Positions 1,644-61,778 are shown, numbered from the stretch's first letter. The stretch: DNA of 64,000 nucleotides from a virus (IMGVR_UViG_3300048881_000780), one strand, 5' to 3'. The notes: a model not told the origin generated them from the sequence alone. Made by a program: numbers and translations.

Positions 1644-1660
1644 TTGACGGAAGGTGTTAA
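1644..1660. promoter_or_regulatory. Palindromic operator copy (TTGACGGAAGGTGTTAA) inside TTGAAT-17-TAATAT promoter
   Basis: Matches recurrent WTRAC-N7-GTYAW motif. Confidence 0.6.
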
Positions 1661-1690
1661 TATTTGAATATTAACCAGATGGAGGCATAA

Positions 1691-1975
1691 ATGAAGCTAT
1701 TTGCACTAGAAAAAATGCTACATTTTAAGCAGGAATTTGACCAAGATGCTAAATTACCCAAGACTGAAGAGGAGTTTAGAACATGGTTTATCCAGCTAGT
1801 TAAAGAACTGGAGCCTGAAAAACTATCCAGTGGTGGAGAGGCCACTAGAGCTGAGATGAGAGAGCGAAAGAAGGAGTTAGATTCCGCTTGGACAGAACTC
1901 GAGTTCCTAAGAGGTAAGAAAGTGAGCTTTAATGAGGCCGAGTCATGGCTCTTTGAAAGTGTAAAATCTACTTAG
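1691..1975 (+). CDS. Hypothetical protein
   Basis: ORF with GGAGG SD. Confidence 0.7.
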   Translation: MKLFALEKMLHFKQEFDQDAKLPKTEEEFRTWFIQLVKELEPEKLSSGGEATRAEMRERKKELDSAWTELEFLRGKKVSFNEAESWLFESVKST

Positions 1976-2255
1976 TAATCGCTTTTCTATAGTTAATCAC
2001 CATATCTTCATAAGAAGTGTAGTTTCCAAAATGACATTCTCCATTTGGATCTGGAATTGGTATTCTAAATTTGTAATCACAAATATCCCAAGAATCTAAG
2101 CCAACTCCCTTTTTAAAATATGAACCATCAGAAATTTCATATTCAATATTCTTTAATTTCTTTCTAATTTTAGAATTTGAATACCTCTTTGCGGATTTTC
2201 TCCACTTAGATCCATAACCTTCAGTTACAAACGCTTTTCTTCTACTCTTTCCCAT
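1968..2255 (-). CDS. Small basic conserved hypothetical protein (phage/plasmid type)
   Basis: AAGGAG SD; KR..N.KIR...G..FKK...WDICDY pattern recalled from phage small proteins. Confidence 0.7.
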   Translation of the reverse strand: MGKSRRKAFVTEGYGSKWRKSAKRYSNSKIRKKLKNIEYEISDGSYFKKGVGLDSWDICDYKFRIPIPDPNGECHFGNYTSYEDMVINYRKAITK

Positions 2256-2290
2256 ATAAAAACTCCTTAAAGCTCTCTATTATAAGAAAT

Positions 2291-2698
2291 TTAAATCAAA
2301 GACTTTAACCACGAATTATTCTTGGTAACGGGAATCTTCTTAATATCCTCTTTCTTACTCAAATCTTCCATCTCTCCATCAAATATCCCATTCGGAGGTA
2401 ATCTCTCCTCTAGTGTATGAATATCTACTTCTTTAATTACTGGATCACTATTAATTGGATACGTTACAAGATATGAGGTTTTAGACTTAAGAAAAGTTGA
2501 TCTGGTATCACAGACCTTATCTTTAAGGTCTATAAAATCAGCTGTTTTTAATTTTGAAAATAGCATGGTTCTAGAATCTAGAGCAATTGTTAGATAGCTT
2601 GAAGTTTCTCTTTCCTTATCATGGTAAACACCCAGTCCTGAAACTTGATCAAGAAAGCTACCCATTGTAAGTTCATTTAAATTCAACATATTAATCAC
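2291..2698 (-). CDS. Hypothetical protein
   Basis: 135-aa ORF. Confidence 0.6.
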   Translation of the reverse strand: MINMLNLNELTMGSFLDQVSGLGVYHDKERETSSYLTIALDSRTMLFSKLKTADFIDLKDKVCDTRSTFLKSKTSYLVTYPINSDPVIKEVDIHTLEERLPPNGIFDGEMEDLSKKEDIKKIPVTKNNSWLKSLI

Positions 2699-2747
2699 CC
2701 ATTACTATTATAATTAAATTACGATAAGCACTTTAGGAGACAAAATT

Positions 2748-3116
2748 ATGATAGAAATTAAAAAAGTAAGCGTTGATAACTATAAAATAGATCTAAAGAA
2801 TTCTAGAAAAAAAGAAAGGCCCACAATGACTGATCCTGGATCTCCTGCATCACTAGCGATTGATATCTATAGAATTAGCGTTGAAGATAAGAGCGCTCTT
2901 TTAAAAACATTAAGTGTAGGTAAAACGATTCGTTTTAAAATTGATCAAGACTTACTACTTACTCATCCTAAAAAAGATATCGATATGGAACACTATGCAA
3001 ATGGATGGGGAGAGGGAGAAATCTCTTCTATTGAAAATTTTGATAAAAATTGCGAAGATGATGAAACCCAAGAAATCACAATTAACTTAGAGAGTGGATA
3101 CGCTGAAGAGCTATGA
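2748..3116 (+). CDS. Hypothetical protein
   Basis: ORF with AGGAG SD. Confidence 0.7.
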   Translation: MIEIKKVSVDNYKIDLKNSRKKERPTMTDPGSPASLAIDIYRISVEDKSALLKTLSVGKTIRFKIDQDLLLTHPKKDIDMEHYANGWGEGEISSIENFDKNCEDDETQEITINLESGYAEEL

Positions 3117-4550
3117 TTTAAAAGATCCCTTCTTCTTTAACCACGTCAATCGATCTAACCCTTGAAGGTGAGGTGGAATATCAAAGATTCTCTCCTCTAT
3201 TGTTTGTGCCAGGTAATAGCAAAAATATTGAACTGTCTTAGTTGTTGAAATTCTCTGAAATCTACCAATTAGTTGATTTCTCTTTTCTTGCTCAAAACTT
3301 AGAGAAAAATCCAGACAAATATCACAGTAATCTAAATTAAGACCTCTAGAGTCTACCTTTGCATTAAAAAGGAGTATTTGATAAGCGTGATTCTCACCTA
3401 TAAAGTGCGGGTGACTAAAACTCTTAGAAAATTCCTTCATTGTGAGATCGCTTGGGAAAATCACAGCAATTCTAGCGCTTGGAAACTCCTTAATCTTTTT
3501 TAATAATTCGCTCTTTACTTTAGAGATTCTTATATTTGCAAGGCCCTTTAACTCAAGACTCAAGTCATCGGACTTTTGATAATTTCCAGCCTTTAATGGT
3601 GTTTTAATAACTTTAGAAACATTTTTAAAAAGACCTTTAGCGGTTCTTCTTAGGTAGTACTTCTTTACATCAGTCAGTAAATTCCCCTTGGCCTGATGAG
3701 TATTTGTATCTTTTTCAAAGTAAAAATACCTTTTAAGGAATTCTGTCTTTAATAAATCTTTTTGAATAAGCGACAATTCCCCATAGAATCTCAATTGATC
3801 GAGTTCCAAATCAAAGGCATTTAGAAAAGTTATCTTATCAGTATGAGATAGGCCCTTCTTAAATAGTTTATACTTCTTTGTTGTCGTATTTCTAAGGCAT
3901 TGTGATTCATCAATAACTACATAATGATAGTCACTAAAATGATCAATATCTTTTTTTAACTTTTCTAGATAATTCTTATGTGAACATAGCAGTATTGGGG
4001 TATTTTTACTCTCATCACTGCTAATAATAGTGGCAAATCTTCTACCATAAACAAGAGAGGCCTCAGTCTCCCAAGTTTTAATGAGATGTTCTGGTGCGAG
4101 AATTAACGCCCTTTTAGAGGAGTTTACTAATACTAAGAGAGCGCAGAGAGAAATTGTTGTCTTCCCCATACCTGGATCATCTCTAAGAAAGGCCTTTCCG
4201 TCGTTTTTCACAATAAAACTAACTCCCTTTTCTTGAAAGGGGTATAACTTTCTCTTGATTGGATATTCAGAGAGGTTGACCACTCGCTTTTTAAATTCAT
4301 TATTATTTAAATAATCTTCTAAATCTGAATCGGCCTTAAATTGATAATTTAAATGAGAAGCAAACTCAAGGAAGTTATATAAATGATCGCGATTCACTGG
4401 AAAATCCCAATAAAACTTACCCTTTATTTTCTTACCGACAACTTCCTTATATTTTTTTACTTCTTTTAGTAGGATTGCATCATAGGGGAAAGATAACCTA
4501 AAAATAGGTTCTTGTGTGTTATTAAAATATTCACACTTAATTAACTTCAA
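3111..4550 (-). CDS. SNF2-family helicase-like protein (divergent)
   Basis: LYPFQEKGV Q-motif, DDPGMGKT Walker A, VIDESQ Walker B, GLNL and QLIGRFQRI motifs V/VI. Confidence 0.8.
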   Translation of the reverse strand: MKLIKCEYFNNTQEPIFRLSFPYDAILLKEVKKYKEVVGKKIKGKFYWDFPVNRDHLYNFLEFASHLNYQFKADSDLEDYLNNNEFKKRVVNLSEYPIKRKLYPFQEKGVSFIVKNDGKAFLRDDPGMGKTTISLCALLVLVNSSKRALILAPEHLIKTWETEASLVYGRRFATIISSDESKNTPILLCSHKNYLEKLKKDIDHFSDYHYVVIDESQCLRNTTTKKYKLFKKGLSHTDKITFLNAFDLELDQLRFYGELSLIQKDLLKTEFLKRYFYFEKDTNTHQAKGNLLTDVKKYYLRRTAKGLFKNVSKVIKTPLKAGNYQKSDDLSLELKGLANIRISKVKSELLKKIKEFPSARIAVIFPSDLTMKEFSKSFSHPHFIGENHAYQILLFNAKVDSRGLNLDYCDICLDFSLSFEQEKRNQLIGRFQRISTTKTVQYFCYYLAQTIEERIFDIPPHLQGLDRLTWLKKKGSFKS

Positions 4551-5975: not shown

Positions 5976-5992
5976 ATAACAGATTGTGTTAA
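5976..5992. promoter_or_regulatory. Palindromic operator copy (ATAACAGATTGTGTTAA)
   Basis: Abuts minus-strand TATAAT of the lipoprotein gene. Confidence 0.7.
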
Positions 5993-6109: not shown

Positions 6110-6598
6110 ATGAGATTATTAATTCTAGCTCTATTTTTTTCTATGACATCAAGTGCTTATGATTTAATTATTCCAAGCCCTCTGATTTCTTGTTACAAAG
6201 AAAATAAAGACTTTATTAAGGAAAGGGCCTTAGTTACCATTAGGGCCAAGTTAAAAGATGAAATAAAGGAAAAGATGAGAGCTAAGAATTTAAATGATAC
6301 AGATATATATAGATTTATCACAAATCCCTATCTCGATTTAAATGTAAAGATTAACAAAATTAAAGAATACGTCGAATTTAGCTTTTCACCAAATTCATCT
6401 ATTTACGAACAGGATTTTCAAAAAAGACTTCACAATTTTTCAAATCATCCATTCTTAGAGATTAAAAGTATTACTAAAAGTCGAGTTAATGATATAAAAC
6501 GGGTACATGATTTTTCTATAGGTTGTCAGGCCCATTATTTTCACGACACAAAGAATGATGATCACAGAATACAATTTCTATTTAAATGGTCATTTTAA
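6110..6598 (+). CDS. Secreted hypothetical protein
   Basis: Signal peptide MRLLILALFFSMTSSA; ATG 6 nt after TAAAAT. Confidence 0.75.
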   Translation: MRLLILALFFSMTSSAYDLIIPSPLISCYKENKDFIKERALVTIRAKLKDEIKEKMRAKNLNDTDIYRFITNPYLDLNVKINKIKEYVEFSFSPNSSIYEQDFQKRLHNFSNHPFLEIKSITKSRVNDIKRVHDFSIGCQAHYFHDTKNDDHRIQFLFKWSF

Positions 6599-8235
6599 AC
6601 TCTTTTAATATCCGATAGAATCATCTCGCCACTTGAAGTAACACCATAAGTAATTTCAACACGTTTATTTAAAAACAAAGATAGATTATCTCTGTTTAAG
6701 AGTTTCATGATCTTATCAGAGTATTTCCAGAAAAATAAAAGCCCAGTAGATGTAGTAGACTTATCCTTTAAGATTAATTTGAAATGATCTCCGTTTTTTC
6801 CCAAAGACTCTATATCTAGTAATGTGGCCCTACTTTTAAACTCGGGCGCTTCTCTTTTTTCTCCAAATGGAAAGAGGGTTTTATATTGATCTTGAAAATC
6901 ACTACTAAAAACTTCACTTAGTTCTATCTTAAGAGACTTATCAATTATGCATGGTTTTCTTTTTTGTAAGTTTTCCTGTAAATACTCAAGCTCACTTTCT
7001 CTCAAACTCATACCACAGGCCATTTTGTGACCACCAAAAGATATAAATAGATCTCGTCCCTTTTCCTCTCGATGCTTAGAGTTAATTTGAGATAAGTGAT
7101 CATACAAGTTAAAGTCTTCAGTGGAGCGAGCACTACCTTTATAACAGTCCTTTTCTTTATTGTAAGTAAGACAAATACAAGGATAATGAAGCGACCTAAC
7201 TAAACTTCCGGCCACTAACCCTGCTACTCCCTCATGAATAGAACTATCAACATAGAGAAACACGCCACTTGGTGACTTATCACTAAGTGCTTCAAGCGCC
7301 CTATGAGTATTTTCTCTTTGAATATCTTTTCTATTTTTATTTTCATTTTGTAGAAACTTAATTGCTGAGAAATCATAATTTCCCAAAAGAAACTTAAGCG
7401 ATAGATCCATATCACCCAATCTTCCTTTGGCATTTAAAATGGGACATATTTGAAACCCCACCTTTTCAAAATCTATGGATTCATTACCTTTTAAGTAAAC
7501 TAGAGTCTTAAGATGTGAATACATCTTCATACTATTTAAACTTACAAGGCCTTTTTTACAAAGTTCAATATTTACTCCCTGCATGGGAACTCGATCACCA
7601 ATCGTTGCAAGACATACAAAGCCAGTTAAGGCCTTCAAGCTGATTCCTACTTTTTCACTCTTTTTTAACTGATCGTTAATTGCCCATGATAAGTAAAATG
7701 CGACTGCACAACCGCAAAGTATAGATAATTCATTCTCTTTGGAGTCAAATCTCTTAGGGTTTACAACACTGTGAGCATATGGAAGTTCTAAGCTACCGTT
7801 CTCGTGATGATCTGTAATAATTAATTCCAAACCAATTTCTTTAGCAAAAACAGCACTGGAGATTGCGGTGATTCCACAGTCCACAGTGATTAACAGATCT
7901 ACTTTATCTTCTTGCTTGGCCTTTTTAATAATATCTTTATGTAGGCCATAACCATCTATAAAACGATCCGGTTGATAAGTTGAAATCTTGGATTTAAACC
8001 CATTATGCTTTATTATTTCGGATAGATAGATATAGAGAGTTGCTATACTAGTGGTACCATCGACGTCATAGTCTCCATAGATACCAATATTCTCTCCATT
8101 CTCTAGGGCCTGAAATACTCGCTTTGAGGCCTTTTCACAGTCAATTAGCTTGGAGTAGTGAGGAATGGATATTTCTTCATTAGGATCAATATTTGACCTT
8201 CTTAGATATTCTTTTAAGATTTCATTTGTTATCAT
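6595..8235 (-). CDS. recJ: Single-stranded DNA-specific exonuclease RecJ (DHH family)
   Basis: GDYDVDG, TVDCG, TDHH, GSARS, GGHKMACG motifs. Confidence 0.93.
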   Translation of the reverse strand: MITNEILKEYLRRSNIDPNEEISIPHYSKLIDCEKASKRVFQALENGENIGIYGDYDVDGTTSIATLYIYLSEIIKHNGFKSKISTYQPDRFIDGYGLHKDIIKKAKQEDKVDLLITVDCGITAISSAVFAKEIGLELIITDHHENGSLELPYAHSVVNPKRFDSKENELSILCGCAVAFYLSWAINDQLKKSEKVGISLKALTGFVCLATIGDRVPMQGVNIELCKKGLVSLNSMKMYSHLKTLVYLKGNESIDFEKVGFQICPILNAKGRLGDMDLSLKFLLGNYDFSAIKFLQNENKNRKDIQRENTHRALEALSDKSPSGVFLYVDSSIHEGVAGLVAGSLVRSLHYPCICLTYNKEKDCYKGSARSTEDFNLYDHLSQINSKHREEKGRDLFISFGGHKMACGMSLRESELEYLQENLQKRKPCIIDKSLKIELSEVFSSDFQDQYKTLFPFGEKREAPEFKSRATLLDIESLGKNGDHFKLILKDKSTTSTGLLFFWKYSDKIMKLLNRDNLSLFLNKRVEITYGVTSSGEMILSDIKRV

Positions 8236-8333
8236 CTATTCCTCACATAATTAATTATAACACAAATCATATCTTAACGCAAGCTGTCAGCTTTTATTAA
8301 AATTTCCACTCTGTTTTCTCATATAATCCCTGT

Positions 8334-8573
8334 ATGAGAAAAATTAAATATGCGCGACAATTACCAAGTGATAATCAAAAAAAGTATAGAGTTAGAGAAT
8401 ACCTTAAAGAAGTTAATGAGGTGATGAAGGATATGGTCTTAGCAAAGAAGTCCAAAAGAGAAATATTGCTCTATATTCAATCAAAGAGAGATCACGTTAA
8501 AAAACTTCCATCAACAGAAGTAAATAGATTGATTTTAAATAGTTTAAATACTTTACTTAGATTAAAATCTTAA
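8334..8573 (+). CDS. Small basic hypothetical protein
   Basis: ORF preceded by CCACT-N11-TATAAT-6nt-ATG. Confidence 0.6.
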   Translation: MRKIKYARQLPSDNQKKYRVREYLKEVNEVMKDMVLAKKSKREILLYIQSKRDHVKKLPSTEVNRLILNSLNTLLRLKS

Positions 8574-16083: not shown

Positions 16084-16100
16084 TTAACACAACGTGTTAT
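16084..16100. promoter_or_regulatory. Palindromic operator copy (TTAACACAACGTGTTAT)
   Basis: Near-perfect palindrome overlapping minus-strand TAAAAT. Confidence 0.75.
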
Positions 16101-16972: not shown

Positions 16973-17007
16973 AATTTAATATATACCACATCGCGTTAAA
17001 ATACAAT

Positions 17008-19754: not shown

Positions 19755-19771
19755 ATAACGTACTGTGTTAA
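19755..19771. promoter_or_regulatory. Palindromic operator copy (ATAACGTACTGTGTTAA)
   Basis: In divergent intergenic gap before the RecE-like gene. Confidence 0.7.
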
Positions 19772-26110: not shown

Positions 26111-26127
26111 ATAACACACGGCGTTAA
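26111..26127. promoter_or_regulatory. Palindromic operator copy (ATAACACACGGCGTTAA)
   Basis: Upstream of gmk-like gene. Confidence 0.7.
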
Positions 26128-27168: not shown

Positions 27169-27185
27169 ATAACACCTTGCGTTAA
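27169..27185. promoter_or_regulatory. Palindromic operator copy (ATAACACCTTGCGTTAA)
   Basis: Upstream of HTH gene. Confidence 0.7.
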
Positions 27186-30472: not shown

Positions 30473-30489
30473 TTAACACATTTCGTTAA
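30473..30489. promoter_or_regulatory. Palindromic operator copy (TTAACACATTTCGTTAA)
   Basis: Upstream of ssb copy 1. Confidence 0.7.
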
Positions 30490-33028: not shown

Positions 33029-33055
33029 TGTGTAATACATTTCAAGGCGTAAACG

Positions 33056-33550: not shown

Positions 33551-33683
33551 AATATTATCGTTTTGAATTTATTGGAATCAGTTATTTAACGATACTGAAG
33601 ATGTCCCGACTAGAATGGATCTAAGTACATCTTTTGTTAAATAAACGCCTCAACTCACTGTTTTTGCGTTTTGACACAGCGCA

Positions 33684-34118
33684 TCAAAATGGAATATCAT
33701 CACTTGTGAAATTTGAATCTGTTGCAATTTCATAATCCTGTGAGAACTCTTCATTAGAAGGACCACTTTGTTTTGAATTATTGCTTTTACTTGCTCCACC
33801 TAGAAATTGAATATTTCTGGCATTGATTTCAGTAGTATATCTCTTCGTTCCATCTTGTCCTTCCCAAGATCTAGTCTGTAGAGATCCCTCAATAAAGGCC
33901 TGACGTCCTTTAACTAAGTACTGATTACAGAGTTCTGCCAGTTTTCCCCAAACAACAATTCTGTGCCATTCGGTCTTTTCTTGCTTTTGACCACTCTTAT
34001 CATTCCACGATTCACTCGTTGCCACAGAGAAATTACAAACAGCCACTCCACTTGGCGTATACTTAAGTTCTGGATCAGTGCCAAGTCTTCCTAATATCAC
34101 TACTTTGTTTACAGACAT
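33684..34118 (-). CDS. ssb: Single-stranded DNA-binding protein (copy 2, tail DDIPF)
   Basis: OB fold nearly identical to copy 1; canonical acidic tail. Confidence 0.95.
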
Positions 34119-34175: not shown

Positions 34176-34192
34176 TTAACACAAATCGTTAA
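34176..34192. promoter_or_regulatory. Palindromic operator copy (TTAACACAAATCGTTAA)
   Basis: Between ssb copy 2 and the paralog triplet. Confidence 0.7.
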
Positions 34193-34245: not shown

Positions 34246-34875
34246 ATGGATTCAATACTAATTGAAATAAAGACATATCTGGTATCACTCCTTGGCACCA
34301 ATAGTTCAGTGTTTTGTGTATTATTAGTATGCGTAACATTATTCTGCTTGGGTTATTTAAAAATAGTCGAAAAAAAATCAGAATATATAGCACTTCCCTT
34401 TTCCATTGTGATAACCTTTTGTGTTATTTTGGCTCATTTTTTCTATTCATCATCTGTTCCCTTAAAAAAGGGTATTTGCCTTACTATAAAAACAAACACT
34501 CTACCTAACTACAAACGCCTAATTAGCAAGCTGGCACTACTGAACGATGAGATTGACGAACATAAGTCGCTTAAGTCAAGTTGGATAAAAGCTTTAAACT
34601 TGAACCATAAAAGAGTTTCTCAACTTAAAGAAAGAGAGAGAATAATTAGAGAGTTAGAGTCTATGAAGTCTAAGCCGTATACATTCGTAGTCTTAGATAA
34701 CTTTAAATCCAAAGGTCTCTACTATATTACTCATAAAAATATGTACACCACTGAGATACCCGAGCTTGGTAATTACTTTATACAAAAGTGCAAAAAAAGT
34801 GATCAAGAAATAATAAAGAAATATTCTAATAACAAAGAAGAAACTTTAGCTAGAGTCAAATTTGTATCTAATTAG
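34246..34875 (+). CDS. Membrane-anchored coiled-coil protein, tandem paralog 1
   Basis: 2 TM, KGIC, VLDNFK..LYY, KC..SD..I...YS.NKE. Confidence 0.75.
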   Translation: MDSILIEIKTYLVSLLGTNSSVFCVLLVCVTLFCLGYLKIVEKKSEYIALPFSIVITFCVILAHFFYSSSVPLKKGICLTIKTNTLPNYKRLISKLALLNDEIDEHKSLKSSWIKALNLNHKRVSQLKERERIIRELESMKSKPYTFVVLDNFKSKGLYYITHKNMYTTEIPELGNYFIQKCKKSDQEIIKKYSNNKEETLARVKFVSN

Positions 34876-37365: not shown

Positions 37366-37524
37366 AAATATCTCCTTTCATTTATCTAAGATTAGGATAA
37401 CTCAAGGTTTTTATATTTCAAGCTTTTTTTGACATTTTATGTCAAGTCTTAACAAATTTCGGTAAATAGCACTCCTTCCTGCGATATAATTAGAAGTAAA
37501 GATAAACCAAAAACGGACAAAGAT

Positions 37525-41103: not shown

Positions 41104-41220
41104 ATTACTATTTTAAGTGGAAAAGGAGTGGTATTGATAACTATCAGCATATTTAGACTTCTCAACATAGATGATAGATAGACAGAGCCTATTTGCTGAC
41201 ACCTTGTGTCAAAAAATACA

Positions 41221-43931: not shown

Positions 43932-44040
43932 TTTTAACTCCTATTTATTAACCTAATACACTTATCGTAATATCATTAGGCAATATTAATACTTGACAAG
44001 ACTAACGCAACACGTTAACATATATAAAAAAGGAGTTTCT

Positions 44041-46883: not shown

Positions 46884-47534
46884 GTGTCAAATAATCGCTA
46901 CGAATTCATTATTCCAATCATAGAAGCACTCCTATTTGAGAAGGGAAAAATTCACTACAATGACATAATCAAGGCCATGAATCTTGAGATGACTCCCGAG
47001 ATGAAGGGTAATTTAACGCATATCATAGCTACCGATATTATTCCAAAAATGGTTAACTCATATCAATCACCGACTCATGGGATTGAAATACTGCACTTAG
47101 TTGAATTTCAAACACTAGAATTTGTAAGTAAGTCTAGATACTCTAGATTCTTAAGTCTAGATAAGACTACAATTGAGATGACTGATCGAACCAGAACAGT
47201 GTTGGCCTGCATTATCTTCAAAGGTCCAATTACAATGGGAGAGTTAACTAAGTATGTTGGTGAATGCTCTCACTTTGTTAGAATTCTCTGTCAGTTAAAT
47301 TATGTGAACTTTAAGTTAAATGGTAAGTGTAATTATATTTATTCCATTTCATCTAAATGTTTAGAGCTATTTAATGCTAATAGTACTAAACATCTAAAGG
47401 AAATGTTACTTGGGTTATCAAATGAAGTACCCTCTGATTATACTAGTAAAGACAGAGAAATCAAAAGCTTAAGTCGTATCAGCTCTAAGCTTAGAGACAA
47501 AAGAAGCAATATAAACATTAACACTATACGTTAA
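46884..47534 (+). CDS. scpB: ScpB-like (SMC-Scp subunit) winged-helix protein
   Basis: IIEALLF, VLACIIFKGPITMGEL, Y..S..CLELF patterns. Confidence 0.65.
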   Translation: MSNNRYEFIIPIIEALLFEKGKIHYNDIIKAMNLEMTPEMKGNLTHIIATDIIPKMVNSYQSPTHGIEILHLVEFQTLEFVSKSRYSRFLSLDKTTIEMTDRTRTVLACIIFKGPITMGELTKYVGECSHFVRILCQLNYVNFKLNGKCNYIYSISSKCLELFNANSTKHLKEMLLGLSNEVPSDYTSKDREIKSLSRISSKLRDKRSNININTIR

Positions 47535-47716: not shown

Positions 47717-47733
47717 ATAACACCTCGTGTTAT
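47717..47733. promoter_or_regulatory. Palindromic operator copy (ATAACACCTCGTGTTAT)
   Basis: Perfect-arm palindrome overlapping TATAAT. Confidence 0.75.
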
Positions 47734-48251: not shown

Positions 48252-48378
48252 AATTCCTTCCTTGTGTAATTATTTTTAACAGTCCGTGTTAAATTAAATG
48301 ATACTAAAACACTCGGGCATAGCGTGAGGGGTTTCTTTATTTAAGTTTGATTTTACAACTTTTTCAGATACTTGAGAG

Positions 48379-48954: not shown

Positions 48955-48970
48955 GGTTATATTTTAATAA

Positions 48971-49189: not shown

Positions 49190-49357
49190 TGATAATATTA
49201 TAAATAAATATAACATCTAGTGTCAAGACGTAACAAACAGAACCACGTAATTCCAGAAGCTTATCCACTTTTAAACTTTTTTCTATTTTATATTTTGACA
49301 AAGTACGACAATATTTATAACCTAAAACTAACACACTGCAACACACAGTAGGAATTT

Positions 49358-50481: not shown

Positions 50482-50565
50482 AAATTCATAATATCGGCCA
50501 TAACGCAGGCCGTCAAGATATTTATTAATAAAAATTAAAAAATATTAAACCTTATAATATTTGAA

Positions 50566-52132: not shown

Positions 52133-53851
52133 CTAAGCACTTTTTGAGTATGATCTGACTTCCTTAGAAAATGACTTTTTAAGTTTTTCAGTTAAATTAT
52201 TTTCTCTGGCAAATCTGTAAAATTTAGCGTTATTACCTTTAGTGAATTCAGACCAACTGGAACACTTTAAAAGGGCCTCTAGTGTAGTTTCTTCGTTAAC
52301 GACTATATTCATATGTTCGCAAACAATATCAAGCCAATTCATTCTTTGAGCACGTTTGTAATAACTTGAGTGGATACTATTCTTAAACTCTCCTCTCTTT
52401 TTATATAACTTTGCTTTCTCTATACAATCTTCGATAGTTCTTCCCTTTTTATTCGATAGAGATACGATATTTGCCATTTTAAAAACTCTCTCAAGTTCAC
52501 CTCTATCTTGAGCTATTTTATAGAATTTCTTTCCGGTTGGACAATCACGCATGTCGATTCTCTTTTTATATCTTTTAGCGACTTCAACTATTTGATCTAT
52601 TGAGATGAATTCTTTCTCGCTATAGTAGGCACTTTTAATCTCACTTAGAGACGTCATTACGTACTCACCATTCTTACTTTCATTTATTCTTTTAAATACA
52701 TCAAGATCAAATTCAAGAGGAATGGAATTTTTACTCTTATAGCAATTAAGACCTCTGATAATATTCTTATTCATTGCTACTTTAAATTGAGAACTACCTT
52801 CGTAGCTTAAGTAGTATTCTTTTATTATTAATGAGCACGCCACTGACATGGCCGCGTAATAGATTGATAATCTTGAGTCGTCGCAAACTTTTATAAACTT
52901 CTTACCAGTTAATCCCAACCTGGTAACTCTATTAATTGCCTGGTATAGAAAATCTACATTCATACTTCCTGAAAAATCTATGATATATCGAAGTGAATTT
53001 AGATCGTAACCAAGAACTCCCCTTCTAACTACGAGTAAAACTTTTTCTTTGCTTGATTTAAAGTTGGATAGATTTTCTGATTTCTTGTCCGTTTTATAAT
53101 TTGTAATTAATGAAGAGATACCCATTTTACTTAATGCTTTTTGACACTGTCTCTGATGAGCAACATCATTACATATGATCATTGTTTTAGATCTAAAACA
53201 ATTTTGATGTTCTTTGAGTACCTTTCTAATAAACTTGTCTTCAAAAATAGTATCCTGTCTTACAAAGTCATTTCGGGTATAATCACTATCTTTTAAGTCC
53301 CAATTAAATTTTGATATTGTAATCTTGGGATTACAGATTACTTTATTAGCAAGTAATTCTTCGGTTGAAATACTCACTATTGGGTATTCAGTGTTTCTAA
53401 TAAAACCACTTATAGATCCAGTCATAGGTAGTACGTACTTTGGTTTTATATCTTTTAATATTGTTTGAACCATATTTTCAAAAAAGAAGTGATGGGCCTC
53501 ATCGATAACAATTAAATCAAACTTAAACTTCTTGAGCTTTCTATAGGACTGAGGAAGTGAAATGCAAATATCATCACTATTTTTGTATTCATCAATGTAT
53601 TTAACACTTAGCTTTTTATTTAAACCTAGTTTAGTGAATCTAGAGTAAAATTGCTCTTTTAAAATATTTTGTCCATGGGTAAGAACTAGAATTTTTTTAA
53701 TTAACTTCTTTTGTTTCATCTTCTTTATTAGAGAGATAGATATATTTGTCTTACCAGAAGCAGGCGCCGCTCCAAGGACTACAAACTTGTTGTTCTTAAA
53801 AAGGTTTATGCATTCGTTTACTTTTTTATCTTGATAACTGTAGTCGGGAAT
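52133..53851 (-). CDS. SF2 (DEAH) helicase with three C-terminal repeats; probable ATT start
   Basis: Frame extends 44 codons upstream of the tracked ATG and includes Walker A (AAPASGKT); IDEAH, MTGS, QAINRVTR. Confidence 0.8.
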   Translation of the reverse strand: MPDYSYQDKKVNECINLFKNNKFVVLGAAPASGKTNISISLIKKMKQKKLIKKILVLTHGQNILKEQFYSRFTKLGLNKKLSVKYIDEYKNSDDICISLPQSYRKLKKFKFDLIVIDEAHHFFFENMVQTILKDIKPKYVLPMTGSISGFIRNTEYPIVSISTEELLANKVICNPKITISKFNWDLKDSDYTRNDFVRQDTIFEDKFIRKVLKEHQNCFRSKTMIICNDVAHQRQCQKALSKMGISSLITNYKTDKKSENLSNFKSSKEKVLLVVRRGVLGYDLNSLRYIIDFSGSMNVDFLYQAINRVTRLGLTGKKFIKVCDDSRLSIYYAAMSVACSLIIKEYYLSYEGSSQFKVAMNKNIIRGLNCYKSKNSIPLEFDLDVFKRINESKNGEYVMTSLSEIKSAYYSEKEFISIDQIVEVAKRYKKRIDMRDCPTGKKFYKIAQDRGELERVFKMANIVSLSNKKGRTIEDCIEKAKLYKKRGEFKNSIHSSYYKRAQRMNWLDIVCEHMNIVVNEETTLEALLKCSSWSEFTKGNNAKFYRFARENNLTEKLKKSFSKEVRSYSKSA

Positions 53852-53956
53852 TTATGTTCCTTAAGTTGTGTAGAACAATATTAACATACCTCCTTTCTTG
53901 ACACAAGCCGTTAACTTATCTTTTTATTGGCGCTACAAAAAGTCTTATAATGTAAG

Positions 53957-54076: not shown

Positions 54077-54751
54077 TTGAATAAGTTAGTTATAGGATTA
54101 GTCGGATATAAGGGTGCTGGAAAATCAACTTTTGCATCATTTGTAAAGTCGATAGTATCAGACGCAGAGGAAATTAGAATCGCTGATAAAATCAAACTAA
54201 CTTGTGCCCAATTACTTAATGTAGATGTCTCAAAGTTTGAAGATCTTAATTTTAAAGAAACTCCATTTGATCACCCACATAAGTTATCAATAACAGATAT
54301 TAAGTACTTACTAGAAGCTTACGACGTTCCCGATTATTTACACAATAAAATCATATCTCGACATAGAGGAGTTTTACTAGAAACTCCTAGGAAGTTTATA
54401 GTTTATCTTGCCACAAATATCCTAAGAGATGAAATAGACCAAGATATACATTTAATTGAGTTAAACAAGAGAATTGAAAATTCTAAATCTAATACATTGA
54501 TTATTTCTGACATTAGGTTTGTAAATGAATTTGAGTTCTTGGCAGAGAGCTTTGGATTAAACTTTAAAGGCATTTACCTTAAAAACGTTAAAGCATATTC
54601 CAATATGATTAAAAATGGCGAAATTGAAAAAAGTGAGTCATTTGTTCCTGAATTAGGTAGAAGGTGTCAGCTAAAAATCAATAATAATTCAACTATCGAA
54701 TCTTTTAAAAAGCGCTCTAAATCAGCACTAGAACCGTTAATAGCACTCTAA
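54077..54751 (+). CDS. Deoxynucleoside monophosphate kinase (phage type)
   Basis: IGLVGYKGAGKST, ADKIK, TPR, ISDIRFVNE. Confidence 0.8.
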   Translation: MNKLVIGLVGYKGAGKSTFASFVKSIVSDAEEIRIADKIKLTCAQLLNVDVSKFEDLNFKETPFDHPHKLSITDIKYLLEAYDVPDYLHNKIISRHRGVLLETPRKFIVYLATNILRDEIDQDIHLIELNKRIENSKSNTLIISDIRFVNEFEFLAESFGLNFKGIYLKNVKAYSNMIKNGEIEKSESFVPELGRRCQLKINNNSTIESFKKRSKSALEPLIAL

Positions 54752-54791
54752 ATAACGTTATAATAAATAAAAGTTATTTAACGAGGAAATC

Positions 54792-55946
54792 ATGAAGAAT
54801 CTAAGAGTAGGTGTATTTTTTAGCGGAATTGACGGTGGCGGAAGCAAGTTAAAAGATAATTATCAAGTAGTCTTTTTAAGTGAAAAAGAAGAGTCCATTC
54901 AAAATTTATTAAAGCTAAATTATAAAGACTGTCCCATTGCTGGAGACTTGAACTCTTTGAAGGTCAAGGATCTGCCAGAGATGGATATTGCGATCATGTC
55001 TCCCCCTTGTCAACCCTACTCCAGTCAGGGAAAACAAAAGGGAAGAGGGGAATCTAAAGGTAGGGTAGCAGATACTTGTATTAAACTTCTAGCAAAGAAA
55101 AAAGTGAATTTTATACTTCTTGAAAATGTGGATAACTTACTTCGCTTAAATGATGGTTATGATTTTATGTGCCTGGTTAAGGTATTTTATAAATATGGAT
55201 ATAAGATTGATTTTAATTTTATAAACTCATCTCATTATGGATCTAAACAGGCCCGAGTAAGGACGTTCTTAGTAGCTATAAGAGAGGGGTCTCCATTAAA
55301 AAAGAGAAGTGATATCCCTGCTTATAATATTGCATTAAATAAAACTGTAGCTAAGTTGAAATCATCAATGAATAAGAAGTATCTAATAAAAGATGGTCAT
55401 GAAAATTTTTTACAAATGCCCAAGAAGTTTAAGGTTCCAAGTGGAGATTTCTTAAAGTTTAAGGCCTCTAGAGATAAACAAAGTATTATTTTATCACCAA
55501 GTGTTTATCAGATCACAAAACTTAAAATTCCTAAAGAATTAAAGAAAGTATTAATAACTTCGCCAAAGAAAAAAAGAGAGAAGTTCTTTTTAGACTTAAT
55601 TCAAAAAAATGTCTCAGAACAAAAAGATATGAAAATTTTAGCGATTATTCCACATTCTAGATCTACTCGGGCCCATCATATAGACGGCAGAATTAGATTT
55701 GATGGAACATTGAATACGTTTACAACTGGTGTGGGGTGCCAGGGACAATCTACTGGAAATTACGTTGTTTACGAAGATTTGTCAATTAGATTACTTACTC
55801 CTTTAGAAGTAGAGAAGTATATGAGATGGCCTAAGAATTGGGTTCATCACGACAAAACCAGTGAACATTTAAGATATAAGCTCTTGGGTAACGGTATTGA
55901 TGGCGAGTTAATTCCGATGATTCTTAGTATGTTTGAGAGGGTTTAA
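54792..55946 (+). CDS. DNA cytosine-C5 methyltransferase (orphan)
   Basis: FSGIDG, SPPCQ, LENV, Q.R.R, RLLTPLE, LGNG. Confidence 0.92.
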   Translation: MKNLRVGVFFSGIDGGGSKLKDNYQVVFLSEKEESIQNLLKLNYKDCPIAGDLNSLKVKDLPEMDIAIMSPPCQPYSSQGKQKGRGESKGRVADTCIKLLAKKKVNFILLENVDNLLRLNDGYDFMCLVKVFYKYGYKIDFNFINSSHYGSKQARVRTFLVAIREGSPLKKRSDIPAYNIALNKTVAKLKSSMNKKYLIKDGHENFLQMPKKFKVPSGDFLKFKASRDKQSIILSPSVYQITKLKIPKELKKVLITSPKKKREKFFLDLIQKNVSEQKDMKILAIIPHSRSTRAHHIDGRIRFDGTLNTFTTGVGCQGQSTGNYVVYEDLSIRLLTPLEVEKYMRWPKNWVHHDKTSEHLRYKLLGNGIDGELIPMILSMFERV

Positions 55947-56012: not shown

Positions 56013-56029
56013 TTGACACGTCGTGTTAA
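56013..56029. promoter_or_regulatory. Palindromic operator copy (TTGACACGTCGTGTTAA) overlapping -35
   Basis: Motif match; TTGACA is part of the left arm. Confidence 0.75.
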
Positions 56030-56114: not shown

Positions 56115-56495
56115 ATGCAAAAAGGTACAAAGGCCAACGAAAAGACCGTTGAAAGAGTTGATAAAGTTTCAAGTACAATCACGGAAGCAAGACATTCTAT
56201 TAATTTAAAGAGACATGATTTTTACGACAATATTGAAAGAGTTTTGTTAACTTTGAATTTAATTTACTTAAAATCTAAAACTAGAGTTGAATGTGAAATC
56301 GATTCTCTTGAAGAAATGATTGAAGAGTTAGTTCCAATTCTTAAACCAATGAAGTGCGAGTATGAGGTGGAGTTTCTCTATGAGAGATGTGAAGAGCTAC
56401 AACTTGATCCAGAGTGCGTAGAGCCAATTGCTAGCACCATCTTTAGAGTTGAAGTTGAAGAAGAGAGCGAAGATGAAGAATTAGTGGCCGCATAA
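56115..56495 (+). CDS. Acidic hypothetical protein
   Basis: GGAG SD; Glu-rich C-terminal half. Confidence 0.7.
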   Translation: MQKGTKANEKTVERVDKVSSTITEARHSINLKRHDFYDNIERVLLTLNLIYLKSKTRVECEIDSLEEMIEELVPILKPMKCEYEVEFLYERCEELQLDPECVEPIASTIFRVEVEEESEDEELVAA

Positions 56496-57301: not shown

Positions 57302-58384
57302 TTAAGAAATTAACTTGGTGTCTTGGTCGTTTGATTTAAGGGCCGGATTTATAGACATTGATCTTCCAGCTTGCTCTCCTAGATTTCGAGAGTGGGTATT
57401 GTTACCACTTTTAGATACTGAGGACTTTATTTTAGAAAAGGCACTATCGATTAAATCTTGTTGAATCTTATCTATTTGCTTTTGCGAGAGAACTAAATCT
57501 GTAGAGTTATTGATAGTCTCTGGAGACATTTTTTTAGTAAATCCGTCAGCTAGGCCACGAAAGAATGAGTTTTTAGCCGAAATTCCTTTGAGTTTCTGTT
57601 CTTTTTTTGTTTTTAACCACAGTCTATCAAGCTCGTGATCAAGAAAACTTGTAATATATTTGGCCATCTCCATTTCTTCTCTATCCTTTACCACTACAAG
57701 TAATTCATTGTACTTAAGTCCACTTGAAAATATTGGAGCAATGAATGGAAACGATTTTAAAATAAAGTAAATTGCTGAAGTCTTTGAATTTCTTCTACTG
57801 CTAGAAATTACAACGTCTGAATAGACTTGCTCATTACTTACTTTCTCTACACTTTCTAGGTGGTATTTACAAATTAGATCATTTGCTTTTTTTAGTGCCA
57901 CTTGAGATTCATTAATATTAGAACTATCTGCCATGGCGAGAAGTTTCTTTACTTTTTTAAATACTTTTAGCTCTGGGTTTGAACTCTCATCAGTTTTAAG
58001 CTTCATTTTAGACTTGGCCTCTGATTGCCAATTATATCTCTTGGCGATGGCCTTAAATTCAGTGCCGTGAGATTTAACATTATCTCCATTCTCAAGATAA
58101 TTTACCAGGTGAATTATTTCATGCCTAATTACTTCTATTAAATCTTCATGAGCAAATTGGTAAGAAAATTGTTTATTTATCCCAATAGAGAATCTATTTG
58201 GATCAAAATGACCTAGGGTTTTAGAGCTTTCAATGATTTCAACAGATAACTTCGTATAGCGATTATTAAAGAGAATGTATTGCTTGGATCTATTTACATT
58301 CAATCCGACACTTTCCATCTCAGAGAATATTAAATTCAGAACCTTAATCGAAAAAATAGACATTGCTTCGCTATGTATTCTCAT
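57302..58384 (-). CDS. SprT-like zinc metalloprotease fused to DUF2786-like domain
   Basis: HEIIH...HGTEF; KVKKLLAMADSSNINES. Confidence 0.8.
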   Translation of the reverse strand: MRIHSEAMSIFSIKVLNLIFSEMESVGLNVNRSKQYILFNNRYTKLSVEIIESSKTLGHFDPNRFSIGINKQFSYQFAHEDLIEVIRHEIIHLVNYLENGDNVKSHGTEFKAIAKRYNWQSEAKSKMKLKTDESSNPELKVFKKVKKLLAMADSSNINESQVALKKANDLICKYHLESVEKVSNEQVYSDVVISSSRRNSKTSAIYFILKSFPFIAPIFSSGLKYNELLVVVKDREEMEMAKYITSFLDHELDRLWLKTKKEQKLKGISAKNSFFRGLADGFTKKMSPETINNSTDLVLSQKQIDKIQQDLIDSAFSKIKSSVSKSGNNTHSRNLGEQAGRSMSINPALKSNDQDTKLIS

Positions 58385-58416: not shown

Positions 58417-58453
58417 AAGACACGCTACGTCAAAACTTAACACGATTCGTTAA
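58417..58453. promoter_or_regulatory. Tandem operator copies (AAGACACGCTACGTCAA; TTAACACGATTCGTTAA)
   Basis: Two motif matches in a divergent promoter region. Confidence 0.65.
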
Positions 58454-58508: not shown

Positions 58509-58883
58509 ATGAAAAATGAAGAGTTTAAGATTGCATTTGAAGAGTTTAGAAAGAATCTACCAAGCGGTGAATGCCCTATTTGTAGTGATCTTTATCGTGG
58601 ATTCGTTGCTGGCTTCAATAGAAATCTTAGGCTAATTGAAAAAATGCATACAGAAAATAGTGAATTAAAAGAATGGATAGTCGAAAGCAAGAAGGAAGAT
58701 CTTTTTAGAAATCGAATTCACAAGATTGATAAACTAAAAAGAGATATCGATTCATTAAGTGAAAGAATAATTGTAGCAACCGATATTATGAAAATTGTTT
58801 GTGCTGATGACTCAAGTAAGAAAAAAGTAGTCGATGATTTTCTAGAGTGCCCCGTTATCAAAGAAGTAAGAGGATTAAAATGA
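58509..58883 (+). CDS. Hypothetical coiled-coil protein
   Basis: GGAG SD. Confidence 0.65.
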   Translation: MKNEEFKIAFEEFRKNLPSGECPICSDLYRGFVAGFNRNLRLIEKMHTENSELKEWIVESKKEDLFRNRIHKIDKLKRDIDSLSERIIVATDIMKIVCADDSSKKKVVDDFLECPVIKEVRGLK

Positions 58884-60176: not shown

Positions 60177-60467
60177 CTAATGTATTTTATATATGTCTAT
60201 TTGTTGATCATTTTTTATTATCTTACAAGGAATACCTTTTACTTTTAATTGAATTTCATTTCCTTTGTTTAATTCTTCTTTGATATAACTTTTAAGGGTA
60301 ATATCATTTTTAAATTCTTCAGCCGTCACTTTGATAGTTAATTTATCTGTAATAATAGAAGATAATTTTAACTTCTCTTTTTTTATCATAAACTTTATTA
60401 ATATATATACTCCAACAAGGGCGACACTCATTAGAAAAATCATTGAAAAAGTATCTAAGCTAAACAT
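60177..60467 (-). CDS. Small membrane protein
   Basis: N-terminal TM; AAGGAG SD. Confidence 0.6.
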   Translation of the reverse strand: MFSLDTFSMIFLMSVALVGVYILIKFMIKKEKLKLSSIITDKLTIKVTAEEFKNDITLKSYIKEELNKGNEIQLKVKGIPCKIIKNDQQIDIYKIH

Positions 60468-60531
60468 TTTTAAACATACTCCTTTTTAAGTTCCTGTTAT
60501 TACGTACATTATAATTTTTCCACTTGAGTTT

Positions 60532-60548
60532 TTAACACAATGTGTTAA
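60532..60548. promoter_or_regulatory. Perfect operator copy (TTAACACAATGTGTTAA)
   Basis: Perfect 7-3-7 palindrome upstream of RNase H. Confidence 0.8.
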
Positions 60549-60569
60549 GATACTTTTACTGGAGTTTTC

Positions 60570-61034
60570 TTGAAAGATGAATTTGTTACCATTTATAGTG
60601 ATGCTTCTTTTTGTCCAAATCAAAAAATTATGGGTTGGGCCTTCTATTCTAGGTGTTCAAGTGGGAAAATGAAGAAGTATGGTTTATTAAACGAAAAGAC
60701 AAATTGCTCAACAACTGCTGAAATGGAAGCTATTTTAATCGCAGTTAAGAGAACTATCCGTAGATGGCCTCACTTAAAGGGTGTATTTGTTAATTGTGAC
60801 TCTTTAACGAGTTGTGAGCTACTTTGGCCTTCAAACTTAAAAGAAACTGATCACTATAATTTACCAAGAGCTCAAAAAATCAAAGATGAAATTATTAGCT
60901 TGTTAGAAAGTAAAGGTATGTGGCTGAGAGTGAAACATGTAAAAGGGCATCAAGTTAGTGATAATGTGAGAAGTTATTTAAATAACTTTTGCGACAAGAA
61001 GGCCAAAGAAAAACTTCTAAAGGCCTCCTCTTAA
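60570..61034 (+). CDS. rnhA: Ribonuclease HI-like
   Basis: YSDAS, AEMEAI, NCDS, HVKGH, NNFCDKKAK. Confidence 0.85.
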   Translation: MKDEFVTIYSDASFCPNQKIMGWAFYSRCSSGKMKKYGLLNEKTNCSTTAEMEAILIAVKRTIRRWPHLKGVFVNCDSLTSCELLWPSNLKETDHYNLPRAQKIKDEIISLLESKGMWLRVKHVKGHQVSDNVRSYLNNFCDKKAKEKLLKASS

Positions 61035-61036
61035 TA

Positions 61037-61663
61037 TTAGGCCACTGCTTTATTCCCAGTACAACTACTACATATTCCATCAGTCATAGAACTCTCCAAT
61101 CCCTTAGTATTGCACTCGTCACACTCTGAAACCCTTCTCTCTCCAATTATTTTCAAACAATCTCCACTGAAATCAAAGCAAACATAGATATTACCTAGTG
61201 TTTTATGAAAACTGTGATGAACTGGATATCTCTTTACCAGCGAGTGTAGCACAGATACGATCTCAGTATTTTCAGTAATAGTGTACAATCCTTCATCATT
61301 ATCTAATACTTTTGAGATACTATAAGAGAATTCAGATAGCGCTGAGTCTCCATCTAAAACTTTTTGACATGCATCAATAATTTTTTCACCCTTTTCTAGT
61401 TCATGACTAATTTCGCACATCTCTCTGGCGCTTGAAATTAGCCCCTGGAGTACTTCTAACTTAGTTCCATCTAAGATATCACTATCATCGATTTGAACCT
61501 CGTAAACGCTCTTTGTTGCATACTCATAAGCAAGTAGCCAGTTAGAAGTTAGATAGATCCCCTCACCTTCAACTCTTTTGAGTGTTTCCACTCTTTCGCA
61601 ATATTCTGCCTTGTAAACCAACTTTTTTAATCCAGATTTACTGGATCCATGAAAAACTTCCAT
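61037..61663 (-). CDS. Protein with ADP-ribosyltransferase-like N-terminus and C-terminal CxxC pair
   Basis: VFHGS...GEGIYLT....AYEYA; start after GGAGG. Confidence 0.55.
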   Translation of the reverse strand: MEVFHGSSKSGLKKLVYKAEYCERVETLKRVEGEGIYLTSNWLLAYEYATKSVYEVQIDDSDILDGTKLEVLQGLISSAREMCEISHELEKGEKIIDACQKVLDGDSALSEFSYSISKVLDNDEGLYTITENTEIVSVLHSLVKRYPVHHSFHKTLGNIYVCFDFSGDCLKIIGERRVSECDECNTKGLESSMTDGICSSCTGNKAVA

Positions 61664-61778
61664 AATTACCTCCAAAATACATATCGTAAATATCCAATAA
61701 AAGGGGAAAATATGAAAAAATGAGCACTTAGTTAAAATATTTATTGACATGACACGTTAACTAATATATTATTTAATT

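Follow-up and report, generated by a model that had tools for sequence, protein, structure and literature searches.

A dispersed 17-bp palindrome at most promoter regions of a giant element is likely the operator of a single dimeric repressor

The DNA analysed here is a 64,000-nucleotide stretch of the virus sequence IMGVR_UViG_3300048881_000780, to which we refer as the window. Its proteins have been placed on a 361-kb contig in the protein database, and the element to which it belongs spans at least 361 kb. The window carries 24 strong and dispersed copies of a 17-bp palindrome (ideal TTAACAC-N3-GTGTTAA), most of them lying on core promoters. We propose that this palindrome is likely the operator of one dimeric helix-turn-helix (HTH) repressor that acts by promoter occlusion, and that this regulator is probably encoded by the element itself. 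An initial annotation of the same sequence had claimed more than 20 copies of such an operator, through which a single repressor would silence a DNA-metabolism or establishment regulon until transfer to a new host, and had singled out one HTH gene as the best candidate for that repressor.

The palindrome is far more frequent than base composition predicts. The pattern WTRAC-N7-GTYAW occurred 20 times in the window, against 1.46 expected and a maximum of 4 in 100 shuffles, and 22 sites were found within three mismatches of the ideal palindrome (5.0 expected), including four copies with at most one mismatch within the 64 kb. Because the GC content of the window is 32% and its intergenic DNA is even more AT-rich, the test was repeated on intergenic DNA only (7.4 kb, 29% GC), where 16 matches to WTRAC-N7-GTYAW were observed against 0.24 expected, with a maximum of 2 among 500 dinucleotide shuffles. 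Expressed as density, there were 2.15 matches per kb of intergenic DNA and 0.07 per kb of coding DNA, a difference of approximately 30-fold. These comparisons, with shuffled sequence and with coding DNA, are those by which the initial annotation had proposed to judge the motif, and both set it clearly apart from the background.

We then described the motif by a symmetrised position weight matrix (PWM) of 23 nt derived from the exact pattern matches. This matrix recovered 24 sites at 14 bits or above (0.37 expected from local-composition shuffles, maximum 2); with the cut-off lowered to 9 bits, the total rose to 27 (4.6 expected). Scores were discontinuous, with 24 sites at 14.6-24.8 bits, three at 11.2-12.9 bits, and the background from 8.9 bits downward. 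The three sites at 11-13 bits are doubtful, since about four chance matches are expected in that score range. Among the 24 coordinates listed previously, 23 are PWM sites, in agreement with the claim of more than 20 dispersed copies; the listed site 58417 is at best a half-site located 20 bp from 58437. The matrix also added four sites to that list (33671, 37449, 49295 and, within an open reading frame (ORF), 34411).

The internal organisation of the sites points to a dimeric binder. When half-sites (TRACRY and its complement) were searched as inverted repeats, 13 pairs were found at a spacing of 3 bp and 0-1 pairs at each of the other spacings from 0 to 15 bp, while searches of the window for everted or direct arrays of TRACRY returned none. 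The resulting layout is 7-3-7, that is, two 7-bp half-sites around a 3-bp centre, with half-site centres one helical turn (~10 bp) apart. Half-site centres separated by one helical turn are the classical footprint of an HTH dimer. The most informative positions are T2, A4, C5 and their mirror images, while position 3, occupied by either A or G, carries less information. Occasionally, two sites are paired at a distance of two helical turns, as at 37429/37449 and at 58437 with the weak 58417. No second palindrome was found to be enriched in the intergenic DNA of the window.

Other interpretations of the dyad were tried and set aside. An RNA hairpin or terminator was rejected, as the sites stand at promoters and mostly upstream of the predicted transcription starts. 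A methylation or restriction site was also dropped: the restriction-type hexamer GTTAAC is present at eight sites, and the position flanking the motif is nearly information-free. The boxes of NikR (7-N13/14-7) and of KstR-type regulators have letters in common with the motif but differ in architecture, and a literature search on the motif strings retrieved no matching paper.

The location of the sites relative to genes and promoters is the second line of evidence. On a gene map comprising ORFs of at least 60 aa, 22 of the 32 promoter-capable gaps (divergent or tandem, at least 80 nt), or about 70%, bear a site. The best PWM scores of the remaining ten gaps are all below 9 bits, and mostly below 0, indicating that site-bearing and site-free promoters form two distinct classes. 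As had been claimed, almost all sites are intergenic; the apparently coding sites 5976 and 47717 fall in over-called N-termini. All strong sites lie within core promoters, with the exception of 33671 and 47518 (Table 1).

Reading toward the downstream gene and scoring sigma70-type consensus elements, we distinguished three registers. In register A, represented among others by 1644, 5976, 16084, 19755, 26111, 27169, 44002, 47717 and 60532, the site occupies -26..-10, so that site position 15 is the first base of the -10 hexamer and the TG of an extended -10 falls on bases 12-13; recognisable -35 boxes sit 3 bp upstream of the site, and in many of these promoters the -35 box is poor. In register B (50500 on the minus strand, 56013, 61744 and 49295), the site occupies -35..-19, with its left half-site forming a TTGACA or TTGACG -35 box and a good -10 located downstream of a 17-bp spacer. 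In register C, found at recJ, the second ssb and the SF2 helicase gene, the site lies at about -43..-27. The overlap with sigma70 -35 or -10 boxes that the initial annotation had noticed is thus confirmed by the promoter reading. All three registers fall within the footprint of RNA polymerase, and none is a typical activator position. The best reading of this promoter-overlapping placement is a repressor geometry. Together, the exclusive 3-bp spacing and the core-promoter placement support the earlier view of one operator family for one dimeric DNA-binding protein.

Further evidence came from a distant relative. Site 27169 lies in the promoter of the HTH gene favoured in the initial annotation, whose product we designate P0001. 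A HMMER search over 1.8 billion representative proteins returned a single homologue of P0001, namely P0126 (E=4e-12, 25-29% identity), carried on a 4.5-kb contig from another sample (L120). A word-based search for P0001 homologues found none, and an alignment-based search of metagenome and viral collections yielded no further loci of the family; hence phylogenetic footprinting is based on L120. The gene order of L120 is that of the window, with a ClpA-like gene, the HTH gene, a small gene on the opposite strand and a homologue of window gene 24908-25486. Its ClpA-like protein (L120:775-3123) is 33% identical to that of the window, and its proteins overall are 25-33% identical. L120 bears two PWM sites, of 17.6 and 16.5 bits. 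One is located 35 nt upstream of the HTH gene and displays the succession of a -35-like hexamer, 3 bp and the site, as at window position 27169; the other occupies the L120 counterpart of the divergent gap in which window site 26111 is found. Position 3 is G in both (TTGAC...GTCAA), a form likewise present in the window. Because DNA cannot be aligned at such protein divergence, a dyad kept at both positions is good evidence of function.

The two loci share other features as well. A CA-repeat tract is located just upstream of the ribosome-binding site in the leaders of both the P0001 gene (27123-27168) and the P0126 gene (L120:3177-3210), and a ClpA-like gene stands directly upstream of the HTH gene in both.

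Based on these findings, we infer repression rather than activation. Depending on the register, a bound dimer would cover the extended -10 (-26..-10), the -35 box together with the spacer (-35..-19) or the region around -35 (-43..-27), and in each of these positions it would exclude RNA polymerase. As about 70% of promoter regions bear a site, one protein could hold down most of the region, keeping its promoters low under feedback that probably includes the promoter of the regulator. Upon entry into a recipient free of repressor, such a circuit would be expected to produce a transient burst of expression before feedback closes the promoters again, and the derepression on transfer proposed in the initial annotation would fit this analogy with known plasmids. 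Release by a trigger such as DNA damage, a protease or a small RNA is equally possible; the long disordered linker of P0001, the neighbouring ClpA-like gene and the conserved CA-rich leader are suggestive of a release trigger.

The genes placed under these operators include both ssb copies, recJ, a ruvC-like gene, a RecE-like gene, gmk, two helicase genes, SprT-like protease genes, the RNase H gene, promoters of small-RNA type and many orphan genes. The proposed DNA-metabolism regulon therefore stands in part: the dispersal over both ssb genes, helicases, SprT-like, RNase H and small-RNA-type promoters was recovered, but the regulon is not specific to DNA metabolism, as the sites extend to most promoter regions and mostly to orphan genes.

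P0001 is predicted to consist of an N-terminal HTH, a disordered linker and a helical C-terminal domain. An AlphaFold2 model, built on an alignment of two sequences and with a mean pLDDT of 65, displayed an N-terminal three-helix unit at residues 8-41 (helices 8-18, 22-29 and 33-41; pLDDT 65-76), a disordered stretch at 44-99 whose boundaries are those of the model, and a helical C-terminal domain at 100-198 (pLDDT 80-88), the part most conserved relative to P0126. All VIA structural matches to residues 2-44 were DNA-binding HTH units, with weak Z-scores of 4.3-5.7 that lie below the safe threshold; among them were a mycobacteriophage immunity repressor, KorB, ParB, HigA and DeoR-type proteins. 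In the match to the KorB DNA-binding domain, the HTH of ~40 residues alone aligns (Z 4.7-5.3). The C-terminal domain had weak matches to ACP/EF-hand-like folds only. Foldseek against the PDB returned nothing at E<=0.001, a PDB profile search reached E-values no better than about 0.6-0.7, for HigA-like proteins and the 434 repressor, and Atlas provided sub-threshold leads (<0.9) to the XRE, CI and CII families.

The promoter of the P0001 gene, TTGGCA-17-TATTAT, is near consensus and embeds a 22-bit operator, and the same layout precedes P0126. An operator in its own promoter identifies P0001 as the binder only weakly, because most window promoters carry a site. As regards the choice of this gene as best candidate, the HTH-like N-terminus, the operator in a strong promoter of its own and the arrangement kept in the only homologue speak for it, while the own-promoter site has lost weight as a means of identification. 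We regard P0001 as a credible but unproven candidate repressor, and its equation with the operator-binding protein as tentative and somewhat on the doubtful side.

The window ORFs yielded no regulator of the S24-peptidase or LexA type, and none of them had a Pfam match to the KorA or KorB/ParB families. Peptidase_M78 was likewise absent from the window ORFs, the SprT-like/phage-metallopeptidase genes at 49358-50086 and 57302-58384 belonging to other families. Of these two metallopeptidase-type genes, only 49358-50086 has the weak PhaR-like DNA-binding gene behind it.

The main alternative, which we consider improbable, is that the palindrome is the box of a global regulator of the host chromosome, such as a LexA-type SOS repressor, co-opted by the element. 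Many targets do belong to repair and recombination (recJ, ruvC-like, ssb, RecE-like), and the lack of an S24-peptidase or LexA-type protein among the window ORFs leaves no such regulator there as a substitute. The element encodes two SSBs (29940-30374 and 33684-34118), and the 80 best matches of the first one, taken from one genome per prokaryotic species (loci L124-L203), were nearly all from Bacteriovoracaceae, Halobacteriovoraceae and other Bdellovibrionota, at 60-85% identity. This suggests predatory Bacteriovoracia as the likely host lineage. No strong site was found in the 472 kb surrounding these 80 chromosomal ssb loci, and five Bacteriovoracia-type genomes (18.7 Mb) contained five matches with at most one mismatch, compared to four for a reversed control pattern. 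All five genomes encode lexA. In four of them (L205-L208), this gene is preceded by a dyad or repeat of 8-3-8 layout with TTACG.AA as its building block, which has the appearance of the lineage's SOS box; the lexA upstream region of the fifth (L204) displayed no clear dyad. The window has no match to this 8-3-8 dyad at up to three mismatches. The LexA box of Bdellovibrio, reportedly described by Campoy et al. in 2005, is said to be unlike the window motif as well. In addition, the targets are chiefly orphan genes and do not amount to a repair set. Identity with a host chromosomal box, which the initial annotation had proposed to check, was therefore not observed in the five genomes of the lineage that were scanned; since the motif occurs there at chance level and is unlike their lexA boxes, the regulator is probably encoded by the element.

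Slightly less probable still is that the palindrome binds an activator or sigma-associated factor, or forms an element-specific part of the promoter, and thus switches promoters on. In favour of this, the site is present at most promoters, many promoters of register A have a poor -35 box, and one half-site coincides with the extended -10 (PMC5282649). Against it, the strict dyad symmetry persists in half-sites that face no gene; these are as well conserved as the gene-facing ones, including T14, which is free in the promoter consensus, and the symmetry therefore does not derive from that consensus. The absolute spacing and the recurrence of the dyad on the -35 boxes of register B likewise argue that the symmetry is no by-product of promoters. 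The site also occurs in three registers, including atop a good TTGACA -35 with a 17-bp spacer and a good -10, and the spacers measure 16-18 bp, whereas MerR-type activation involves spacers of 19-20 bp. Sigma regions 2 and 3 would clash with a dimer bound at -26..-10.

We assign about the same low probability, or marginally less, to a ParB/KorB-like or nucleoid-type silencer for which the palindromes would be loading or anchoring points, serving partition or condensation with secondary effects on transcription. The KorB/ParB-type HTH units among the weak structural matches of the P0001 N-terminus and the ScpB-like gene of the element would agree with such a role. No ParB-type domain was detected in any window ORF, though, and the confinement of strong sites to core promoters, 33671 and 47518 excepted, means that direct occlusion suffices without spreading. 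Finally, the notion of an AT-rich extended -10 consensus doubled by chance and devoid of function, prompted by the resemblance of the half-site to TRTGnTAWAAT (PMC5282649) and by the abundance of TGnTAnnWT (66 and 75 on the two strands), is effectively refuted by the spacing of half-sites, the intergenic shuffles and the two positions conserved in L120 despite the divergence of its proteins.

Occlusion by one dimeric repressor remains our preferred explanation, and the following points weigh against it. The PWM was trained on the very sites that it scored, which leaves the pattern counts and the spacing test as the measurements free of circularity. The registers were deduced by scanning AT-rich DNA for consensus elements, a setting in which spurious -10 boxes are frequent. 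The right half-site, moreover, is close to the low-GC extended -10 consensus TRTGnTAWAAT, so that the promoter signal and the operator signal are intertwined, as has also been noted for the GTGTTA-type sites of Mollicutes controller proteins (PMC5282649). L120 came to light by way of the candidate's homologue, and the co-occurrence is biased by this route of discovery: it indicates that the motif and the P0001 family travel together, and binding is not thereby demonstrated. P0001 itself has neither a Pfam family (E<=0.01) nor a PHROG, and there are other candidate binders, namely the XRE protein encoded at 33056-33427, the PhaR-like protein encoded at 50016-50390 and regulators in the remaining ~270 kb of the element. 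The host assignment depends on a single gene, that of the SSB.

By function, this system is, by analogy, a regulon under a global plasmid repressor, of the type known from KorA/KorB and R388, with an operator designed like the dyads of cI/XRE-type repressors; membership of its regulator in a named protein family is not established. On the 60-kb plasmid RP4, KorA acts through a 12-bp symmetric operator at seven promoters (PMC2665229), and an IncP-1 plasmid is controlled by four global repressors (PMC4889941). The IncP-1 KorA/KorB system (RK2/RP4) resembles the one described here in that dimeric HTH repressors encoded by the plasmid bind copies of a single short, symmetric operator, which recurs at numerous promoters of replication, transfer and maintenance functions as well as at those of the repressors themselves. 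It differs in that our motif is unrelated (7-3-7, 17 bp) and finds no family match at the sequence level, in that no second co-repressor operator was detected in the window, and in scale, the 64 kb examined here, out of at least 361 kb for the element, already holding 24 strong sites, at ~70% of promoter regions.

The mechanism behind the establishment idea is that of the IncW plasmid R388, in which plasmid-borne negative feedback acts on strong promoters and expression has been measured to surge when the plasmid enters a cell devoid of repressor (PMC3937220). This overshoot mechanism, which is also implicit in the IncP-1 KorA/KorB circuits (PMC2665229, PMC4889941), is the basis on which we suggest a similar behaviour. 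R388 employs six repressors with different operators, in contrast to the one dominant operator here.

The operators of XRE repressors from temperate phages and integrative and conjugative elements (cI, ImmR-type) are alike in design: their 17-bp dyad, whose half-sites are separated by one turn, sits between the -35 and -10 boxes and overlaps an extended -10. An exact-motif scan of viral contigs returned mostly single chance matches, and the sole informative contig among the matches listed was L118, an IMG/VR sequence of enterococcal-phage type. Its operators at 1684, 1826 and 1857 score 21.7, 21.4 and 14.5 bits with the window PWM and share with the window the register of -35, 3 bp and operator. 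A small HTH gene and a module of XRE repressor, Peptidase_M78 (ImmA/IrrE-like) and tyrosine integrase flank the divergent gap that holds them, the whole locus spanning L118:1380-4850. The relatives of this repressor are Enterococcus and Streptococcus phage repressors, and the window candidates have no sequence similarity to the L118 proteins. Moreover, the L118 operators are clustered in a single immunity switch, whereas those of the window are dispersed over dozens of operons. ImmR/ImmA and DdrO/IrrE-type modules likewise combine an XRE protein with an adjacent M78 protease, while neither an M78 protease nor an integrase is found beside our candidate. In Mollicutes, the XRE-type controller protein HsdC binds GTGTTA repeats that overlap the extended -10 TRTGNTAWAAT and represses transcription, and inverted-repeat variants exist (PMC5282649). 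Its validated site is a direct repeat, (GTGTTAN5)2, with a tiny regulon, and homology to the window system is not evident.

New here are the motif, the family of orphan proteins to which the candidate belongs, the probable group of hosts and the scale, with one operator serving most promoter regions of a giant element. The principle, global autorepression of a plasmid backbone, is already known and appears here on a much larger element. The giant extrachromosomal elements of uncultivated bacteria consist almost exclusively of orphan genes, and their control is hardly understood. In this case, a single motif marks promoters, delimits transcription units and separates regulated from unregulated promoter classes, and it might be used to recognise further fragments of the element family in metagenomes. 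If Bacteriovoracia are indeed the hosts, it also offers a rare view of plasmid regulation in that predatory group. A far more elaborate scheme is conceivable, though unlikely as a whole: that a family of two members (P0001 and P0126) among ~15 billion predicted proteins is the master silencer of a plasmid-like element of at least 361 kb in predatory Bacteriovoracia, working through at least 100 operator copies, and that its level would be set by autorepression, by GU-rich small RNAs of the element that target the CA-rich leader and by the adjacent ClpA-like unfoldase, devoid of the N-domain, acting on the disordered linker, all three layers being conserved beside it in the distant relative.

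Table 1 Candidate repressor gene and palindromic sites of the window (positions from the first nucleotide; scores from the PWM; promoter registers as predicted)
Feature	Position	Strand	Score (bits)	Context
Candidate repressor P0001	26526..27122	minus		198 aa; predicted N-terminal HTH, disordered linker, helical C-terminal domain
Putative operator	1644..1660		20.8	Divergent gap; -26..-10 of plus-strand promoter, gene 1691-1975; faces long minus-strand operon starting at 1548
Putative operator	5976..5992		20.1	-26..-10 (TGn + TATAAT) of apparently leaderless lipoprotein gene, true start near 5955
Putative operator	8274..8290		19.5	Divergent gap recJ (6595-8235, minus) / 8334-8573; about -43..-27 of recJ promoter
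Putative operator	16084..16100		21.4	-26..-10 of DUF2227 gene 15339-16073, apparently leaderless, head of long minus-strand operon
Putative operator	16983..16999		18.8	Overlaps -10 of RuvC-like gene 16331-16972, apparently leaderless
Putative operator	19755..19771		19.1	Fills 18-bp divergent gap; -26..-10 for RecE/exonuclease VIII-like gene (plus, ends 21900); also overlaps -10 of gene 19312-19746 (minus)
Putative operator	26111..26127		21.2	-26..-10 (TGn + TATAAT) of guanylate-kinase operon 25486-26088 (minus), divergent from 26178-26492
Putative operator	27169..27185		22.0	-26..-10 inside HTH-gene promoter: TTGGCA, 17-bp spacer, TATTAT with TGn extension
Putative operator	30473..30489		21.0	Upstream of operon ssb (29940-30374) + 79-aa gene + ClpA-like (27205-29448)
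Operator-like site	33671..33687		16.8	Convergent gap, 3' end of second ssb
Putative operator	34176..34192		17.9	Divergent gap second ssb (33684-34118, minus; about -43..-27) / gene 34204-34875
Weak match	34411..34427		11.2	Inside ORF; probably chance
Two sites 20 bp apart	37429..37465		14.6 (37429); 12.9 (37449, doubtful)	Divergent gap 36721-37365 / 37525-38223
Putative operator	41196..41212		20.8	Upstream of 40396-41103 (minus) and HD-domain gene 38997-40394
Putative operator	44002..44018		16.5	TTGACA, 3 bp, site; -26..-10 for small plus-strand ORF; divergent from DUF3846 gene 43536-43931
Putative operator	47518..47534		16.9	Exactly at stop codon of ScpB-like gene 46884-47534
Putative operator	47717..47733		20.7	-26..-10 (TGn + TATAAT) of plus-strand gene ending at 48000
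Putative operator	48276..48292		18.5	24 nt upstream of 47997-48251 (minus)
Putative operator	49210..49226		16.1	About -36..-20, minus-strand promoter of small gene + SLT transglycosylase operon (48379-49216)
Weak site	49295..49311		12.4 (doubtful)	-35..-19, promoter of metallopeptidase (49358-50086) + PhaR-like (50016-50390) operon
Putative operator	50500..50516		17.1	-35..-19 of minus-strand TTGACG-17-TATTAT promoter (small-RNA candidate); also upstream of 50566-50883
Putative operator	53898..53914		21.2	Divergent gap SF2 helicase 52133-53719 (minus; about -43..-27) / dNMP-kinase-like + C5-methylase operon 54077-55946
Putative operator	56013..56029		22.9	Left half = TTGACA -35 box (-35..-19), promoter of 56115-56495
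Possible half-site	58417		5.2	At most auxiliary half-site, doubling as -35 box
Putative operator	58437..58453		20.3	Divergent gap SprT-like/DUF2786 gene 57302-58384 (minus) / 58509-58883
Perfect palindrome	60532..60548		24.8	-26..-10 (TGn + TAAGAT) of RNase H gene 60570-61034; divergent from 60177-60467
Putative operator	61744..61760		16.5	-35..-19, plus-strand TTGACA-17-TATTAT promoter reading into 320-bp gap (small-RNA candidate)

Several of the genes controlled by these sites appear to be leaderless (minus-strand starts at 5955, 16073, 16972 and 19746), with the ATG 5-7 nt past the -10 and no Shine-Dalgarno sequence. The gene at 5955 opens with a lipoprotein-type signal peptide, its database start at 6008 being probably over-called, and is the head of an operon that ends with a SNF2-type helicase (3111-4550). 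The ScpB-like (condensin subunit) gene at 46884-47534 has a promoter gap of its own that contains no operator. Meanwhile, the 2.5-kb stretch 30864-33427 is free of operators and includes four promoter-capable gaps; within it lies 33056-33427, the one window gene that Pfam recognises as XRE.

The gene content of the window comprises ~79 ORFs, most without a Pfam family. Recognisable products of DNA metabolism are SNF2-type and SF2 helicases, RecJ, a RuvC-like protein, a RecE/exonuclease VIII-like protein, two SSBs, guanylate kinase, a dNMP-kinase-like protein, a C5 methylase and RNase H. The other recognisable products are a ScpB-like protein, an SLT transglycosylase, a weak FtsK-like ATPase, two SprT-like/metallopeptidase proteins, an XRE protein and a weakly matching PhaR-like DNA-binding protein. 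With regard to conjugation, the SLT transglycosylase and the weak FtsK-like ATPase were the only products of note in the window. Two ClpA-like double-AAA ATPases are encoded at 27205-29448 and 44520-46670, without a detectable Clp N-domain. The ClpA-like protein has no match above 35% identity in the protein database, and single-protein locus scans with ClpA-like and RecJ identified no relatives. Megablast of 24 kb of the window against plasmid and phage collections gave no match, nor did Rfam and tRNA scans of the window.

The flanks of the window were read from a 145-kb Logan assembly that carries the same sequence. The right flank (10 kb) contains five strong intergenic sites and one weak site, and the left flank (18 kb) contains two, much of it being one long operon driven from the 1644 gap. 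Three modules are encoded just outside the window (L121:2027-3830, 6905-7727; L122:2568-3172): a pair of histidine kinase and OmpR-type response regulator, an XRE gene followed by a GmrSD_C nuclease gene, and a Gp49(HigB)-HTH_37 toxin-antitoxin pair. An operator is located 400 nt upstream of the XRE/GmrSD_C module.

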